Translations under genes and position numbers: made by a program
Notes under the pieces: generated by a model
What the model was told of the DNA's origin: nothing
The model's database searches: none
Seen by the model: only the letters and a program-made list of their open reading frames with translations
Assembly (NCBI GenBank): GCA_002633185.1
Contig: NWBM01000003.1
Coordinates: forward strand, 36,107-100,106
Source: Lachnospiraceae bacterium Phil5
GTDB taxonomy: Bacteria; Bacillota; Clostridia; TANB77; CAG-508
DNA: 64,000 bases
Direction: 5' to 3'
Shown: piece by piece, positions 2,222 through 62,368 of the stretch
Position numbering within the stretch: the stretch's first letter is position 1
Layout: each line of letters begins with the position of its first letter

Positions 2222-2260
2222 TTTTTTGGGACACCTCCAAAAAATCTCCCAAAAATCTAC
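2222..2260. repeat. Dispersed palindromic repeat unit (GGGACACCTCC orientation)
   Basis: TTTTTTGGGACACCTCCAAAAAATCTCCCAAAAATCTAC; same core as 13 other units in the window. Confidence 0.9.
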
Positions 2261-2264
2261 CACC

Positions 2265-2293
2265 TTGACGAAACTCACTTTTTATAGTATTAT
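2265..2293 (+). promoter_or_regulatory. Putative sigma-70 type promoter for the ClpE-like gene
   Basis: TTGACG-17 nt-TATTAT, about 50 nt upstream of the ATG at 2346; the -35 box directly abuts the repeat unit. Confidence 0.5.
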
Positions 2294-2345
2294 ATTACTG
2301 TTATTAACAATATAAAAAACATGAAAGTTTAGGTGATAAATACAA

Positions 2346-4706
2346 ATGTTATGTTCAAAATGTAATAAAAATACAGCAGTTATTTTTTTGAATAAATTGA
2401 ATCCCGCTACAAAGGAAACTCAAGTTGAAGGTTTATGCTATGCATGCGCTAAAGAAATGGGAATTAACCCTCTTGAAGCTCTAGCAAAACAAGCAAATCT
2501 TTCTCAAAATGATATCGAGGATATGACTTCTCAGTTTGAAAGCATGTTCAAAGATATTTCTGAAAATATGACTGAAGAAGAAATGGACAACTTCATTGCT
2601 GAAGGTGAAGAAGCTATGAATGATATTACTCCTGAATCTTTAGGCTCAATTTTCTCAGGATTATTTGGTCTTGGCAATGCTGACAGCAACACAAACGGAG
2701 CAGCATCTGGAGACGGAACACAAACAAATGCCAGTGCTAATGCAGGTTCTGGTTCAGAAAAAACTCAAAAAGTAAAAGAAGCTAAAAAACAAAATAAAAA
2801 GAAAAAAGCTTTAGATACTTTTGGTACAAACCTTACAGCCAAAGCTAAAAACAATCAATTAGACAACGTTGTTGGTCGTGATAAAGAAATTCAAAGAATA
2901 ATTCAAATTTTAAATAGACGTTCCAAAAATAATCCATGCTTAATTGGTGAACCTGGAGTTGGTAAAACAGCCATTGCACAAGGTTTAGCAATTAAAATTG
3001 CAAATGGAAATGTACCTGCAAAATTATTAAACAAAGAAGTTTATCTTTTAGATATGACTGCAATAATTGCAGGAACTCAATTTAGAGGTCAATTCGAATC
3101 TAGAATGAAATCTATAATTGATGAATGTAAAAACTTAGGAAATATTATATTAGTAATTGATGAAATACACAACATTATTGGTGCAGGTGATGCTGAACAT
3201 TCTATGAATGCTGCAAATATACTAAAACCATCACTTTCAAATGGAGAAATTCAATTAATTGGAACTACAACTTTGAAAGAATATAGAAAATATATTGAAA
3301 AAGACAGTGCTTTAGAAAGAAGATTTCAACCTGTAAAAGTTGAAGAACCTTCTATTGATGATGCTATTGAAATTTTAAATGGAATTAAAAAATATTATGA
3401 AGATTTCCATAAAGTAAAAATTTCAAAAGATGTAATTCGTCAGGCTGTAATTATGTCTGAAAAATACATACATGACAGATTTTTACCAGATAAAGCAATT
3501 GATATCTTAGACGAAGCTTGTTCAAAAATCAACTTAAATAATAAGCAATTATACAAGCTTGAAGTTCTAAAAAACGAGCTAAAAAAAGTTCAAGAAGAAA
3601 AAGAAGAAGCTGCTTCTGCAGATTCAACAGAAGATTACCAAAAAGCTGCAGAGCTTAAAACTAAGGAATGTCAGCTTACAGACGAAATTGAAGCTTTAAA
3701 TAAAACAGTTAAAATTTCAAGTTTAACTGTTCAAGATATTGCAAATGTTATAGAAAACTGGACAAAAATTCCTGTTAAGAAAATAACTGAAGAAGAAACT
3801 CAAAAATTGTTAAATTTAGAGACAAATCTTCATAACAGAATAATTGGTCAAAACGAGGCTGTTGAAGCAGTTTCAAGAGCAATTAGAAGAAATCGTGCTG
3901 GATTAAAAACAACAAAACGTCCACCATCATTCATATTTGTAGGACCAACAGGTGTTGGAAAAACTGAGCTTGCAAAATCACTTGCATATGAAATGTTTGG
4001 AAATGAAAATTCAATTATTAGAGTAGATATGTCTGAATATATGGAAAGCCACTCAACTTCTAAGTTAATAGGCTCACCTCCAGGTTACGTTGGATATGAT
4101 GATGCAGGACAACTTACTGAAAAAGTTAAGCGTAATCCATATTCTATAGTTCTTCTTGATGAAATTGAAAAAGCACATCCAGACGTGTTCAACATTTTAT
4201 TACAAGTATTAGATGATGGAAGACTTACAGATTCACAAGGAAATACTATCAATTTTGAAAATACAATAATAATTATGACATCAAATGCTGGATCAACTTT
4301 AAATACAAATTCAATCGGTTTTGGAGACACATCTGAAACAAAGAAAAATAAGATTTTAGACAGTTTGAAAGAAGTATTCAGACCTGAATTCTTAAACAGA
4401 ATTGATGAAATTGTAGTATTTGATTCATTAAACAAAGAACAATTACTTCAAATTGTTGATTTAATGTTAGCTGAAACTTCAAAAGTTCTTGCAGATAAAG
4501 ATATTGAAATGTCTGTAACAAACGAAGCTAAAGAATATTTATTAACAAAAGGCACAGATTTAAAATATGGTGCAAGACCTTTAAGAAGAGCAATTCAAAG
4601 ATATATTGAAGACGAAATATCAGACTTAATTTTAAAAGGCGAATTAAAAAACGGTCAAAAAGTTTCAATAACATTTGACACAGAATTACATTTTAATGTA
4701 GAATAA
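2346..4706 (+). CDS. ClpE/ClpC-like AAA+ Clp ATPase with an N-terminal CxxC...CxxC zinc ribbon
   Basis: CSKC...CYAC N-terminus; GEPGVGKT and GPTGVGKT Walker A motifs; short UVR-like coiled coil (YQKAAELK); IGF ClpP loop. Confidence 0.85.
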   Translation: MLCSKCNKNTAVIFLNKLNPATKETQVEGLCYACAKEMGINPLEALAKQANLSQNDIEDMTSQFESMFKDISENMTEEEMDNFIAEGEEAMNDITPESLGSIFSGLFGLGNADSNTNGAASGDGTQTNASANAGSGSEKTQKVKEAKKQNKKKKALDTFGTNLTAKAKNNQLDNVVGRDKEIQRIIQILNRRSKNNPCLIGEPGVGKTAIAQGLAIKIANGNVPAKLLNKEVYLLDMTAIIAGTQFRGQFESRMKSIIDECKNLGNIILVIDEIHNIIGAGDAEHSMNAANILKPSLSNGEIQLIGTTTLKEYRKYIEKDSALERRFQPVKVEEPSIDDAIEILNGIKKYYEDFHKVKISKDVIRQAVIMSEKYIHDRFLPDKAIDILDEACSKINLNNKQLYKLEVLKNELKKVQEEKEEAASADSTEDYQKAAELKTKECQLTDEIEALNKTVKISSLTVQDIANVIENWTKIPVKKITEEETQKLLNLETNLHNRIIGQNEAVEAVSRAIRRNRAGLKTTKRPPSFIFVGPTGVGKTELAKSLAYEMFGNENSIIRVDMSEYMESHSTSKLIGSPPGYVGYDDAGQLTEKVKRNPYSIVLLDEIEKAHPDVFNILLQVLDDGRLTDSQGNTINFENTIIIMTSNAGSTLNTNSIGFGDTSETKKNKILDSLKEVFRPEFLNRIDEIVVFDSLNKEQLLQIVDLMLAETSKVLADKDIEMSVTNEAKEYLLTKGTDLKYGARPLRRAIQRYIEDEISDLILKGELKNGQKVSITFDTELHFNVE

Positions 4707-4791
4707 ATTTGTACATATTTAAACTAAATATTTATCAGTGCCAAAAGGAAAACCACCTTTTGGCACAACATAAATTAAGGAGGTATCCGAG

Positions 4792-60876: not shown

Positions 60877-60952
60877 TGGTCGAGGCGACAGGGATCGAAC
60901 CTGCGACCTCATGGTCCCAAACCACGCGCGCTACCAACTGCGCTACGCCTCG
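60877..60952 (-). tRNA. tRNA-Pro (anticodon TGG)
   Basis: CGAGGCGTAGCGCAGTTGGTAGCGC...TT-TGG-GA...GGTTCGATCCC...CCA. Confidence 0.95.
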
Positions 60953-61093
60953 ATTAATTATTATGTCTTCAAGTGACTAATATAATATAACACACTATAA
61001 TTAGTTTTTCAAGTGTTTTTAGAAAAAATTTCATAAAAAATCAATTTTCTCTTGAAATATTGAACAAAACACGTTATAATAATAAATAGTTTT

Positions 61094-61170
61094 GCAACTG
61101 TAGCTTAGCTGGATAGAGCGTTCGGCTACGAACCGGAAGGTCGGGGGTTCGAATCCCTCCAGTTGCACCA
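61094..61170 (+). tRNA. tRNA-Arg (anticodon ACG)
   Basis: GCAACTGTAGCTTAGCTGGATAGAGC...CT-ACG-AA...GGTTCGAATCCC...CCA; TTGAAA-17-TATAAT promoter upstream. Confidence 0.95.
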
Positions 61171-61171
61171 A

Positions 61172-61208
61172 ATAAACAAACAGAAATACTCTGTTTGTTT
61201 ATTTTTTT
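61172..61208. terminator. Bidirectional terminator shared by tRNA-Arg and htrA
   Basis: ATAAACAAACAG-AAATACT-CTGTTTGTTTAT followed by a T-run; overlaps the htrA stop codon. Confidence 0.8.
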
Positions 61209-62368
61209 CTATTCAATTCACACTCAAGTTCAACCATCCTTCTACCTTTCAAAACAGTTAGCTTCACCCTATCTCCCACATTCTTCTTATATATATATTC
61301 TCTTAAATCACACATTTTATCTAATTCAACATCATCAATTTTAACAATAACATCTCCAATTTCCAGTCCACTTCTATATGCTGGTGAATCAAGCGAAATT
61401 TGTGCTACATAAATTCCTGTATCAAATTTCAAATTTGTGTTTATATATGGAATTACATTTTTATCATAAGCAAAAATGCCAATTGCTGCCTCATCAAATT
61501 GCCCATCATTTTCAAATCTTTCTATTATTGGCTTAACTACATTAATTGGAATTGCAAAACCCATTCCATCAGCTGATGTGATTTTTACTGTATTTATTCC
61601 AATTACTGCCCCATTGATGTTTATAAGCGGTCCACCACTATTACCAGGATTTATTGTTGCATCTGTTTGTATTAAGTTTGAATAATAGATATCTTTATCA
61701 TTTTCTTTAAAAACCAAAGCTCTATTTGTTGCACTTACTATTCCAGATGTAACTGTTTTTTGGAATTCAAATCCTATTGGATTGCCTATTGCATAAACAA
61801 CATCTCCTACTAATACTGAATCTGAATCACCAAGAATTGCAACATCAATAAATTTCATATTCACCCTTAAAATTGATAAATCCAAATCCGTGTCAGACCA
61901 CGCAACAACAGCATTATACTGTTTTCCATCTTCCATTGTTATATAACAAGTGCTGCCCTTACTTCCAGATACATGTTCATTTGTTAGAATATATCCCTTT
62001 TCTGAAACAATTAATCCACTCCCTATCCCCATTTTGTTAACACCATCTGTTAGAAAAACCGAATTACCGTTGTCTTTTAATTTTGAAATTCCAACTACAC
62101 TTTTCATTGAATTTTCAAGCATTTGAGATATGTTATTCATATCGATAATTTCGTTTGAATCTGTTGTACTTATTGCAAGTCTTTGTGCTTCAACTTTGTC
62201 TGAATTCTTTGAGATGTTTTTTGGAGGTGTCCCCAAAAAAATATTTTTTGGGACACCTCCAAAAAACATCCCCCAAAAAAGAAACAGCACTAAAATTATT
62301 ACAATAATAATCCATTTTATCTTTTTTACCTTATTTGTTTTATGACCCTCCTCATAAGAAATTTTCAA
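61199..62368 (-). CDS. htrA: HtrA/DegP-family serine protease with a PDZ domain; a repeat-derived insertion follows the TM anchor
   Basis: TNEHV, D and GNSGGPL catalytic triad context; C-terminal PDZ; TTG start with an AGGAG RBS. Confidence 0.9.
   Translation of the reverse strand: MKISYEEGHKTNKVKKIKWIIIVIILVLFLFWGMFFGGVPKNIFLGTPPKNISKNSDKVEAQRLAISTTDSNEIIDMNNISQMLENSMKSVVGISKLKDNGNSVFLTDGVNKMGIGSGLIVSEKGYILTNEHVSGSKGSTCYITMEDGKQYNAVVAWSDTDLDLSILRVNMKFIDVAILGDSDSVLVGDVVYAIGNPIGFEFQKTVTSGIVSATNRALVFKENDKDIYYSNLIQTDATINPGNSGGPLININGAVIGINTVKITSADGMGFAIPINVVKPIIERFENDGQFDEAAIGIFAYDKNVIPYINTNLKFDTGIYVAQISLDSPAYRSGLEIGDVIVKIDDVELDKMCDLREYIYKKNVGDRVKLTVLKGRRMVELECELNRKK
62213..62270. repeat. Inverted pair of palindromic repeat units lying in frame inside htrA
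   Basis: GATGTTTTTTGGAGGTGTCCCCAAAAAAATATTTTTTGGGACACCTCCAAAAAACATC; encodes [19 protein letters not shown] on the minus strand. Confidence 0.9.

Follow-up and report, generated by a model that had tools for sequence, protein, structure and literature searches.

A dense family of dimer-forming palindromic repeats with GTAG-type feet in the genome of an uncultured low-GC Clostridia bacterium

The window analysed here is a 64-kb stretch of DNA from Lachnospiraceae bacterium Phil5 (assembly GCA_002633185.1, contig NWBM01000003.1, positions 36,107 to 100,106), with ~30% G+C and genes mostly on the minus strand. Between and beside these genes, which include clpC-like, galE, rpoB and rpoC genes, a penicillin-binding protein (PBP) gene and an htrA-like protease gene, a short palindrome recurs in 14 copies, hereafter called units. 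The units belong to a dispersed, dense and mostly extragenic palindromic repeat family that has not previously been described. In agreement with the preliminary description of this DNA, no catalogued family matched. Only six tRNAs in the window reached Rfam gathering scores, and in E-value mode the inverted pairs of units drew only sub-threshold generic hairpin look-alikes (microRNA precursors, and rli31 at 39 bits against an 80-bit cut-off). A full-text literature search for the motif string returned only coincidental matches to eukaryotic primers, and the catalogue of GTAG-type repetitive extragenic palindromes (REPs), which covers >80 species from eight phyla, contains no mention of Firmicutes or of Clostridia (Di Nocera et al. 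2013, PMC3733652).

Pattern scans of the window with the 21-mer TTTTTGGAGGTGTCCCAAAAA at up to three mismatches gave 13 matches, seven of them exact, against 0.00 expected, and the 11-mer GGAGGTGTCCC at up to one mismatch also gave 13, against 0.08 expected. A profile hidden Markov model built from the units recovered the same 14 sites and none further above noise in the 64 kb; the degenerate fourteenth unit, TTTTTTGTGGTAGTCCCAAAAATCTAC at 10975-11005, is genuine. All coordinates previously given for 14 units with the core TTTTTGG-AGGTGTC-CCAAAAA, one of them degenerate, were correct, and the GATG flank on one side and the ATCTAC or CTCTAC flank on the other were as described. Contigs identical to the window (L016, L024, L029 and L037, from GCA_965313995.1) and contigs of a 99.5% identical strain (L017 and L026, from GCA_965302385.1) were also available. 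L024 reaches ~4 kb to the left of the window and L037 ~10 kb to the right, so that ~78 kb could be read in total, and these flanks added four units (L024:9097, L037:2110, L037:2226 and L037:8807). The resulting density is about one unit per 4.3 kb. Because 18 units lie in ~78 kb, the presence of hundreds per genome is a reasonable extrapolation.

On the CACCTCC strand, a unit reads 5'-GT(A/G)G-(AG/AT)-TTTTTGG-GACACCT-CCAAAAA-(A)CATC-3'. Its parts are an unpaired foot of GTAG type, a dinucleotide spacer (AG or AT), a stem of 7 bp composed of A/T+GG, the loop GACACCT of 7 nt and a tail, (A)CATC; the form with a GTAGAG foot and a CATC tail is GTAGAG-TTTTTGGGACACCTCCAAAAA-CATC. The foot consensus (A/C)TCTAC corresponds to GTAGA(G/T) on the opposite strand. 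CTAC or CCAC is present in ~9 of the 18 units, and the remainder are one or two changes off. The half-site with its foot, CCCAAAAATCTAC, matched 15 times in the window at up to two mismatches, against 2.6 expected, and is also found solo or as degenerate tandem copies beside units. The inner stem TTTTTGG/CCAAAAA grows from 7 bp to 12-16 bp where the flanks are complementary. Across lineages the loop is the most conserved part of the element, and with the adjoining stem bases it forms GGAGGTG, a Shine-Dalgarno (SD) string, on one strand and CACCTCC on the other. The latter is identical to what we take to be the 16S rRNA anti-SD core (no 16S gene lies in the window). Both strings had been noted in the preliminary description.

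Most loci are head-to-head (HH) dimers, with the feet outward, or collapsed or double-foot derivatives of them. The loci in the window are listed below.

2222-2260 (-), collapsed HH dimer: a full unit (core 2223-2243, GGAGGTG on the minus strand) and a half-unit with foot CCCAAAAATCTAC (2248-2260, plus strand); flanked by the terminator of the Clp ATPase gene upstream and by the -35 box TTGACG (2265) of the next, clpC-like gene.
5367-5431, HH dimer: units 5367-5387 (-) and 5405-5431 (+) with a 17-nt spacer, forming a 28-bp hairpin; fills the gap between two convergent genes, and the right foot CTCTAC holds the TAG stop of gene 5428-6012 (-).
10849-11005, REPIN-like composite (REPINs are described below): unit 10849-10875 (-, foot GTGTGG), a ~115-nt spacer and the degenerate unit 10975-11005 (+, foot CTAC); between the stop of a major facilitator superfamily (MFS) gene and the consensus promoter (-35 at 10822) of an NlpC/P60 gene.
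32521-32730 (+), second copy of the composite: its spacer homologue, 32551-32663, is 78% identical to 10879-10983 and inverted relative to it.
32521-32567 and 32641-32687, 47-bp inverted repeat: 94% complementary, with GTAG at its start, flanking the spacer homologue.
32699-32730 (+), the unit of this second composite: ends 6 nt before the -35 box (TTGACT, 32731) of the PBP gene.
39287-39403, HH dimer: units 39287-39310 (-) and 39376-39403 (+), enclosing an intrinsic terminator after rpoC.
47090-47123 (-), single unit: an GTGTTCCC variant with foot GTGG, followed by phased A-tracts; between the terminator of a gene for a 121-aa protein and the consensus rpoB promoter (-35 at 47069).
47677-47716 (+), single unit 47677-47705 and adjoining half-unit: the foot-like ATAGAG carries the TAG stop of galE.
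50207-50239 (-), double-foot unit GTAGAG-TCTTTGGAGGTGTCCCCCAAA-CTCTAC: between convergent genes; the foot overlaps the TAG stop of the short-chain dehydrogenase/reductase (SDR) gene 50239-50967 (-) by one base.
52145-52191 (+), collapsed HH dimer: a half-unit with foot GTAGATTTTTGGG (52145-52157) and a full unit with foot ATCTAC (core 52165-52185); between divergent genes, with the left foot 2 nt from the -35 box (TTGTCA, 52142) of gene 51506-52087 (-).
62213-62270, tail-to-tail (TT) dimer: units 62213-62238 (+) and 62245-62270 (-), in frame in the htrA-like gene 61199-62368 (-).

With the flanking contigs included, there are four HH dimers with spacers of 17-110 nt (5367/5405, 10849/10980, 39286/39381 and L037:2110/2226), five HH forms that are collapsed or double-foot, and a single TT dimer whose units are 6 nt apart. 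The collapsed forms (2222-2260 and 52145-52191) consist of a half-unit and a full unit, and GTAGAG...CTCTAC double-foot forms are found at 50207-50239, L024:9097 and L037:8807. Two of the dimers, 39286/39381 and L037:2110/2226, enclose host terminators. The preliminary description held for the family as such and did not include this HH-dimer, REPIN-like organisation, the diagnostic GTAG tag, the shared 115-nt spacer or the in-frame genic copies.

Folding separates the dimers from the single units. Each unit had been said to fold by itself, which is formally the case; as RNA, however, single units reach only -5.9 to -7.2 kcal/mol, with z values of 0 to -0.8 relative to shuffles, and only inverted pairs and double-foot units are clearly structured. 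Dimers fold at -44 to -55 kcal/mol (z -9 to -13), for example -45.4 kcal/mol for 5360-5433, -44 kcal/mol for 62208-62275 and -55.5 kcal/mol for the region 39276-39412, while double-foot units fold at -17 to -19 kcal/mol (z ~-4). Within a dimer, the two loops pair with each other in a duplex of 21-28 bp. The units were also considered as intrinsic (Rho-independent) terminators and rejected as such: the stem is A/T-rich, the T-run and the A-run are themselves the stem, and single units fold no better than shuffles. Ordinary, separate terminators adjoin or sit inside many of the loci, and 8/18 units abut one.

The two composite loci share more than their units. A ~115-nt module (...GTGCGCAGTTTGGCG...ATCGCCAGCAAAC...) occurs at 10876-10974 and, 78% identical and inverted, at 32551-32663, lying between or beside units in both places. 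Because this spacer is common to both loci, dimer plus spacer is present in two copies, which resembles a REPIN signature, and by analogy the composite may have moved as one unit. The module has no Rfam match and no copy in the other loci. It is G+C-rich relative to the genome and could be a small RNA or simply a REPIN-like spacer. In the second composite, the 47-bp inverted repeat takes the place of the left unit and forms a hairpin of -45 kcal/mol as DNA (z -9.9); it looks like a recent palindromisation of one arm.

Sixteen of the 18 units are intergenic, in convergent, tandem and divergent settings, which largely bears out the placement at gene ends and between genes in the preliminary description; the pair at 62213-62270 is the exception. 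A stop codon is 2-15 nt away from six of the 14 window units, and the foot of each of these points at the gene. Four genes have a TAG stop that lies in a foot or overlaps one. These are the genes ending at 5428, at 50239 and at ~47714 (galE) and a DnaC-like gene in L037, so that stop codons are supplied at more places than the two first reported, of which the one at 5428 lies inside the foot and the one at 50239 overlaps it by only a single base. The C-terminus of the product of gene 5428-6012 (...FLEDFE) is unchanged in all homologues, with or without the repeat, and the unit at 5428 has therefore been placed exactly at the stop without changing the protein. At the other end of the intergenic regions, five units end 2-26 nt upstream of near-consensus sigma-A -35 boxes (2265, 10822, 32731, 47069 and 52142), which belong to clpC-like, NlpC/P60, PBP, rpoB and kinase-like genes, respectively. 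In these cases the foot faces the promoter, and A5-6 tracts recur every 11-13 nt in the units. The units thus fill the scant free space between stop codon, terminator and next promoter, and since intergenic regions are so short, proximity to promoters and terminators is expected for any insertion. The promoter was considered as part of the element and this was dropped, because the sequences past the -35 box are unrelated between loci. The Spo0A '0A box' TGTCGAA found beside two units was likewise set aside, as it is not enriched (5 occurrences against 3.8 expected).

Mechanical open reading frames (ORFs) of 61-115 codons run through the units at 10845-11030 (+), 32532-32729 (-) and 52136-52483 (+) and would encode unit-derived peptides (FWRCPKK and LGTPPKN, for example). 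Almost certainly these frames are spurious, and automatic annotation would mis-call them as genes.

The placement of the units bears directly on the preliminary suggestion that the loop mimics SD and anti-SD sequences. At the RNA level, a transcribed loop might bind the 30S subunit, as in mRNA stabilisation of the STAB-SD type, or sequester SDs, and thereby regulate translation or decay. Consistent with such a role, one strand has a perfect 7-nt SD and the opposite strand a perfect 16S anti-SD core, the loop outlasts every other part of the element across lineages, and mRNA would carry the anti-SD strand in five of the six units that follow a stop by 2-15 nt. However, no gene has a unit in the place of its ribosome-binding site, five or more units sit upstream of promoters or in the interval from a terminator to the following promoter, where transcription should be scarce, and the orientation of the 14 window units is 7:7 overall. 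In dimers the loops are engaged with each other and so are not free, the hairpins of single units are marginal, and loss and decay of copies in close relatives (see below) argue against an essential role. We therefore regard a function of this kind as very unlikely; the SD/anti-SD resemblance of the loop is a curiosity and would be at most a side effect.

The exception to extragenic placement lies in ORF 61199-62368 (-), which encodes an HtrA-type protease with Trypsin_2 and PDZ domains according to a Pfam scan. The ORF begins with TTG behind a good SD and encodes an N-terminal membrane anchor, and the TT pair is in frame right after the anchor. Two sister-species orthologues (P0002 and P0003, from loci L027 and L028), which are 88% identical to the window protein by BLASTP and 90-91% by alignment, carry one unit at this site against two in the window. 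The extra segment in the window is exactly 27 nt, ATTTTTTTGGGGACACCTCCAAAAAAC, and equals one inverted unit; it is thus an in-frame polymorphism of nine codons, bordered by AT at both ends. HtrA orthologues of 60-68% identity contain no unit-derived peptide. L027 and L028 come from the same metagenome (ERZ28612955) and hold an identical htrA allele in two contexts. L028 has the gene order of the window, while in L027 htrA is followed by DUF3846, DUF6809, HU and HTH_3 genes, which suggests an integrated mobile element near tRNA genes.

[quoted passage not shown] The units would then be terminal inverted repeats of a decayed insertion sequence (IS) with a DDE transposase, and the pairs and 160-nt composites would be internally deleted cut-and-paste copies with a short target-site duplication. 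The elements are indeed bounded by inverted copies of the unit, the two composites have internal sequence in common, in-frame insertion into coding regions is known for bacterial MITEs, and the AT on both sides of the 27-nt segment could be a 2-bp duplication. In a context of A/T runs, however, AT..AT is uninformative, and the other units lack consistent flanking direct repeats. Solo units of ~30 bp and single-unit indels are smaller than any MITE, and no IS with such ends and no DDE transposase was found in any locus (Pfam scans beside units). Moreover, the conserved, asymmetric GTAG foot at one end fits recognition of a hairpin plus tag and not of simple terminal inverted repeats. A MITE origin is accordingly unlikely.

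Comparison with relatives revealed turnover at several other sites, and the suggested check for presence/absence polymorphism was positive (the galE site, the 27-nt htrA indel, the sites in L036 and the decayed 5367/5405 pair). In the sister species represented by L023, which is 91.6% identical over rpoB/rpoC, the unit between the terminator and the rpoB promoter is retained (orthologue of 47090-47123). The same contig has no unit after galE, which instead ends with a TAA stop, one extra codon and an ordinary terminator hairpin, and it lacks the dimer after rpoC (39287-39403), where the downstream gene differs too. Over the common 10 kb, the sister species has one unit against four in the window. 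A clearly decayed version of the 5367/5405 dimer, which matches the consensus perfectly in the window, is found in L035, also from the sister species. In the fully syntenic, ~77% identical L036, no unit is present at three orthologous intergenic sites, including that of 10849-11005, and five loci of 16-21 kb from more distant relatives (24% G+C, ~90 kb) contain none. Such gain, loss and decay among relatives point to a proliferating and decaying repeat population and not to a conserved host signal. At L036:10390-10435, orthologous to unit 2223, a different, G+C-rich palindrome (GGGGAAAGGCGGAGGTGG-TTTCAA-CCACCTCTGCCTTTCCCC), which also contains GGAGGTG/CACCTC, adjoins the same conserved terminator; this palindrome could belong to a separate repeat family or be coincidental.

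Beyond these relatives, the family is patchily distributed among Clostridia lineages, and in line with the preliminary description it is not confined to the window: besides the four units in the flanking contigs, there are copies in the sister species, in at least two named Clostridia metagenome-assembled genomes (MAGs) and in three metagenome contigs. A scan of contigs from a collection of species-representative genomes, in which the genome of the window is absent, gave 15 matches, of which seven are chance (unrelated high-GC or Bacteroidota), and a scan of metagenome contigs gave six, of which four are real. The CALXZS01 (bin49) MAG has the same core with flanks G(A/C)TG...CA(T/G)C and inverted pairs 53-54 nt apart, the JAFYBZ01 MAG has it with flanks ATGC...GCAT, and it is also found in three low-GC metagenome contigs (L019-L021). 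Dimers resembling those of the window occur in bin49 and in L021. Viral contigs gave no match to the core, and plasmid and phage collections gave none to the 191-nt composite. The outer stems vary by lineage and remain complementary (GATG/CATC, GCTG/CAGC, ATGC/GCAT and GTAGAG/CTCTAC), which supports a hairpin or palindrome-generating mechanism over a fixed double-strand protein site.

These distribution data also weigh on the possibility that the units are a host cis-acting DNA signal kept by selection, either a chromosomal protein site or a UP-element-like or bent-DNA module with phased A-tracts that tunes promoters and terminators. Such a signal would account for an identical core in several Clostridia lineages with differing flanks, for the five units just upstream of -35 boxes with their regularly spaced A-tracts, for the conservation of the rpoB-upstream unit in the sister species, for the perfect consensus of the 5367/5405 pair although its orthologue is decayed, and for the 8/18 units that abut intrinsic terminators. 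It is difficult to reconcile with the ~77% identical relative, which has none at the same promoters and gene ends, with the ~90 kb of more distant relatives, or with the absence or decay of copies in the sister species. Copies also occur in every intergenic context and inside coding sequence, and the outer stems covary rather than keep fixed bases. Taken together, we consider a host signal rather improbable.

A DNA uptake signal for natural transformation was weighed on the same grounds. ComEC and DprA are encoded in the window (6868-9174 and 29651-30604, respectively), and the repeat is dense, short and specific to a species group and often forms inverted pairs at gene ends. In Neisseria, uptake sequences are often paired in inverted orientation, and such pairs act as terminators as well. 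Known uptake sequences, however, are also frequent inside genes, whereas 16/18 units here are extragenic, and they are stably conserved at orthologous sites, unlike the units. In addition, no uptake specificity is known in Bacillota, and this explanation is highly implausible.

The closest known systems are the GTAG REPs and bacterial interspersed mosaic elements (BIMEs) of proteobacteria and other phyla, among them the E. coli REPs with their transposase TnpA-REP. Like these, the family consists of palindromes of ~30 bp with a 7-bp stem and an unpaired GT(A/G)G tag, separated from the stem by a dinucleotide as in families GTAG-1 and GTAG-2 (PMC3733652). It is dense and mostly extragenic, with occasional in-frame genic copies and stem sub-families that differ by compensatory changes. 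GTAG REPs form HH dimers 20-100 bp apart (PMC3733652), and in the present family HH dimers at 20-100 bp predominate and closely apposed ones occur too. Set against the features by which GTAG REPs are recognised, the units show the 20-40-bp length with a 6-13-bp stem (although single units fold like shuffles), the GT[AG]G tag (weaker here than the >90% conservation in most GTAG REP families; PMC3733652), the extragenic location and the inverted dimers at 1-5 or 20-100 bp. GTAG REPs also number ~100 or more per genome; the ~78 kb read here contain 18 units. The differences are the low-GC Clostridia host, an A/T-rich and barely stable stem in place of a G+C-rich one, an invariant 7-nt loop in place of a variable one of 2-3 nt, a tag that is canonical in about half of the copies, and the lack of a linked REP-associated tyrosine transposase (RAYT) in the DNA read.

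REPINs, the REP doublets forming hairpins of Pseudomonas fluorescens (Bertels and Rainey 2011, PMC3116915), provide a second parallel. In both systems two inverted REPs and a spacer make a long hairpin, the doublet with its spacer is present in more than one copy (10849-11005 and 32521-32730 here), copy number differs between sister species, and singlets resemble decayed doublets. Unlike in REPINs, spacing here is not fixed and is regular only in the bin49 MAG, at 53-54 nt; several dimers enclose a host terminator and not a family-specific spacer, and no flanked single-copy RAYT was seen. The double-foot units 50207-50239, L024:9097 and L037:8807, which start with GT[AG]G on the 5' side and close with the complementary sequence on the 3' side, resemble the double-foot REPs of TnpA-Y1 subclass 2.4, products of a deletion in the centre of an inverted dimer (Quentin et al. 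2018, PMC6006769). A deletion of this kind could likewise explain the GTAGAG...CTCTAC units. The stems of subclass 2.4 REPs are long and G+C-rich, and these REPs lie beside or inside their transposase gene; neither feature was seen here. Finally, the palindromic copies tolerated in frame in the htrA linker recall Rickettsia palindromic elements (RPEs) and in-frame MITEs; RPEs, however, are 100-150 bp long and mostly intragenic, in contrast to units of ~30 bp of which 16/18 are extragenic.

Overall, we consider it likely that the units are a selfish or mobile REP-like repeat family. That a Y1 transposase mobilises them is a more tentative proposal, made by analogy, and the combined statement, that the units are short non-autonomous repeats of REP/REPIN type mobilised in trans by a Y1/HUH transposase, we judge slightly better than even. 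Copies would spread within the genome as single-stranded DNA hairpins. An HUH/Y1 tyrosine transposase, RAYT-like or IS200-like and encoded elsewhere in the genome, would cut next to the GTAG foot and rejoin the ends, as shown for E. coli TnpA-REP, for which GTAG at the foot of the REP hairpin is the recognition and cleavage signal (PMC6006769; PMC3733652). Selection would spare only harmless copies, namely those in the few bases that separate a stop codon, a terminator and the following promoter, or those in frame in a linker that tolerates them. Where a copy inserts into the final codons of a gene, the TAG of its foot would provide the stop codon. The GGAGGTG/CACCTCC loop would be conserved because it is most likely recognised by the mobilising protein, and its SD/anti-SD look is probably a by-product. 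Transcribed dimers would form RNA duplexes of 21-28 bp that could shield 3' ends or be cut by RNase III, as a side effect and not as the reason for the elements. IS200-type Y1 transposases are abundant in Clostridia (PMC6006769), and RAYTs of Group 1 occur there as well (PMC5581495).

Several observations weigh against the proposed mobilisation. No Y1/HUH or other transposase was found in the window, in the ~14 kb of flanks or near units in other MAGs; the search for a cognate RAYT was thus negative for the ~78 kb of this genome and for every related locus fetched. A six-frame scan for the HUH...Y motif over the window and part of the fetched loci returned a single spurious antisense ORF. Pfam scans of 20 ORFs beside units in the window and the bin49 MAG found housekeeping genes and no transposase, and the Pfam families recorded for the genes of L030-L037 include no Y1 transposase. 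Since no such gene turned up in the readable DNA, the link to RAYTs is one of analogy only, and for Group 1 RAYTs no tie to abundant repeats is known (PMC5581495). Unlike classical G+C-rich REPs, the units have a weak, A/T-rich hairpin, with single units folding like shuffles; only about half of the copies have a canonical GTAG foot; and the loop, at 7 nt, is both longer and much more strongly conserved than that of most REP families described. The spacing of dimers varies in this genome (27, 38, 95, 116 and 131 nt), unlike that of Pseudomonas REPINs, and the 7:7 orientation shows no strand bias relative to replication and so gives no pointer to lagging-strand targeting. The same 19-21-nt core in lineages with differing flanks could, moreover, reflect a host function.

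In the bin49 MAG, AAA_14/DUF4143 ATPase genes lie directly beside a unit (L003:1548-3137 and L010:3171-4541); the adjacency is probably chance, the other neighbours being housekeeping genes.

A bolder, speculative version would join the two themes. The units would be the first REPIN/RAYT-type replicators in Bacillota with a loop selected as an SD/anti-SD pair, so that copies bind 30S or mask SDs and dimers serve as RNase III substrates, altering how stable the flanking mRNAs (rpoB/C, clpC, PBP and htrA) are or how they are translated. If true, an SD-selected loop would explain why the core persists in several Clostridia lineages with different flanks. We consider this version quite unlikely.

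Several other features of the region were observed alongside the repeats. The rpoB leader (46670-47045) is ~380 nt of untranslated sequence that is 95.3% identical to the sister species, against 92.8% for the rpoB coding region, and includes a conserved hairpin with a T-run behind it; no Rfam family matches the leader, which may be a regulatory leader or attenuator. For the 121-aa protein encoded upstream (47174-47539), look-up found nothing on record. A HicA/HicB toxin-antitoxin pair lies between the ComEC gene and a BofC-like gene (6119-6714), a position conserved in L036. Three Clp/Hsp100 ATPase paralogues, two in tandem (10-2151 and 2346-4706) and one ClpB-like on the other strand (35161-37758), are the source of the long inverted repeats of low identity, I1-I9, in the repeat scan. 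Just to the right of the window (L037:2244-7830), a cohesin-domain protein and a 1486-aa protein without Pfam matches are encoded, which hints at a cellulosome-type lifestyle of the host.

The repeats also have practical consequences. The Logan contig L025 breaks off within unit 5405-5431 (window position 5408), where the repeat interrupted assembly, and other assemblies of the species also have contigs ending at units. As the repeats break metagenome assemblies, create spurious ORFs, supply stop codons and add in-frame codons, they should be masked by those who annotate MAGs. More broadly, work on REP and REPIN repeats and on the domesticated transposases that go with them has been confined almost entirely to proteobacteria and a small number of other Gram-negative phyla, and a dense, GTAG-footed, dimer-forming family in uncultured low-GC Clostridia would extend REP biology to Bacillota.

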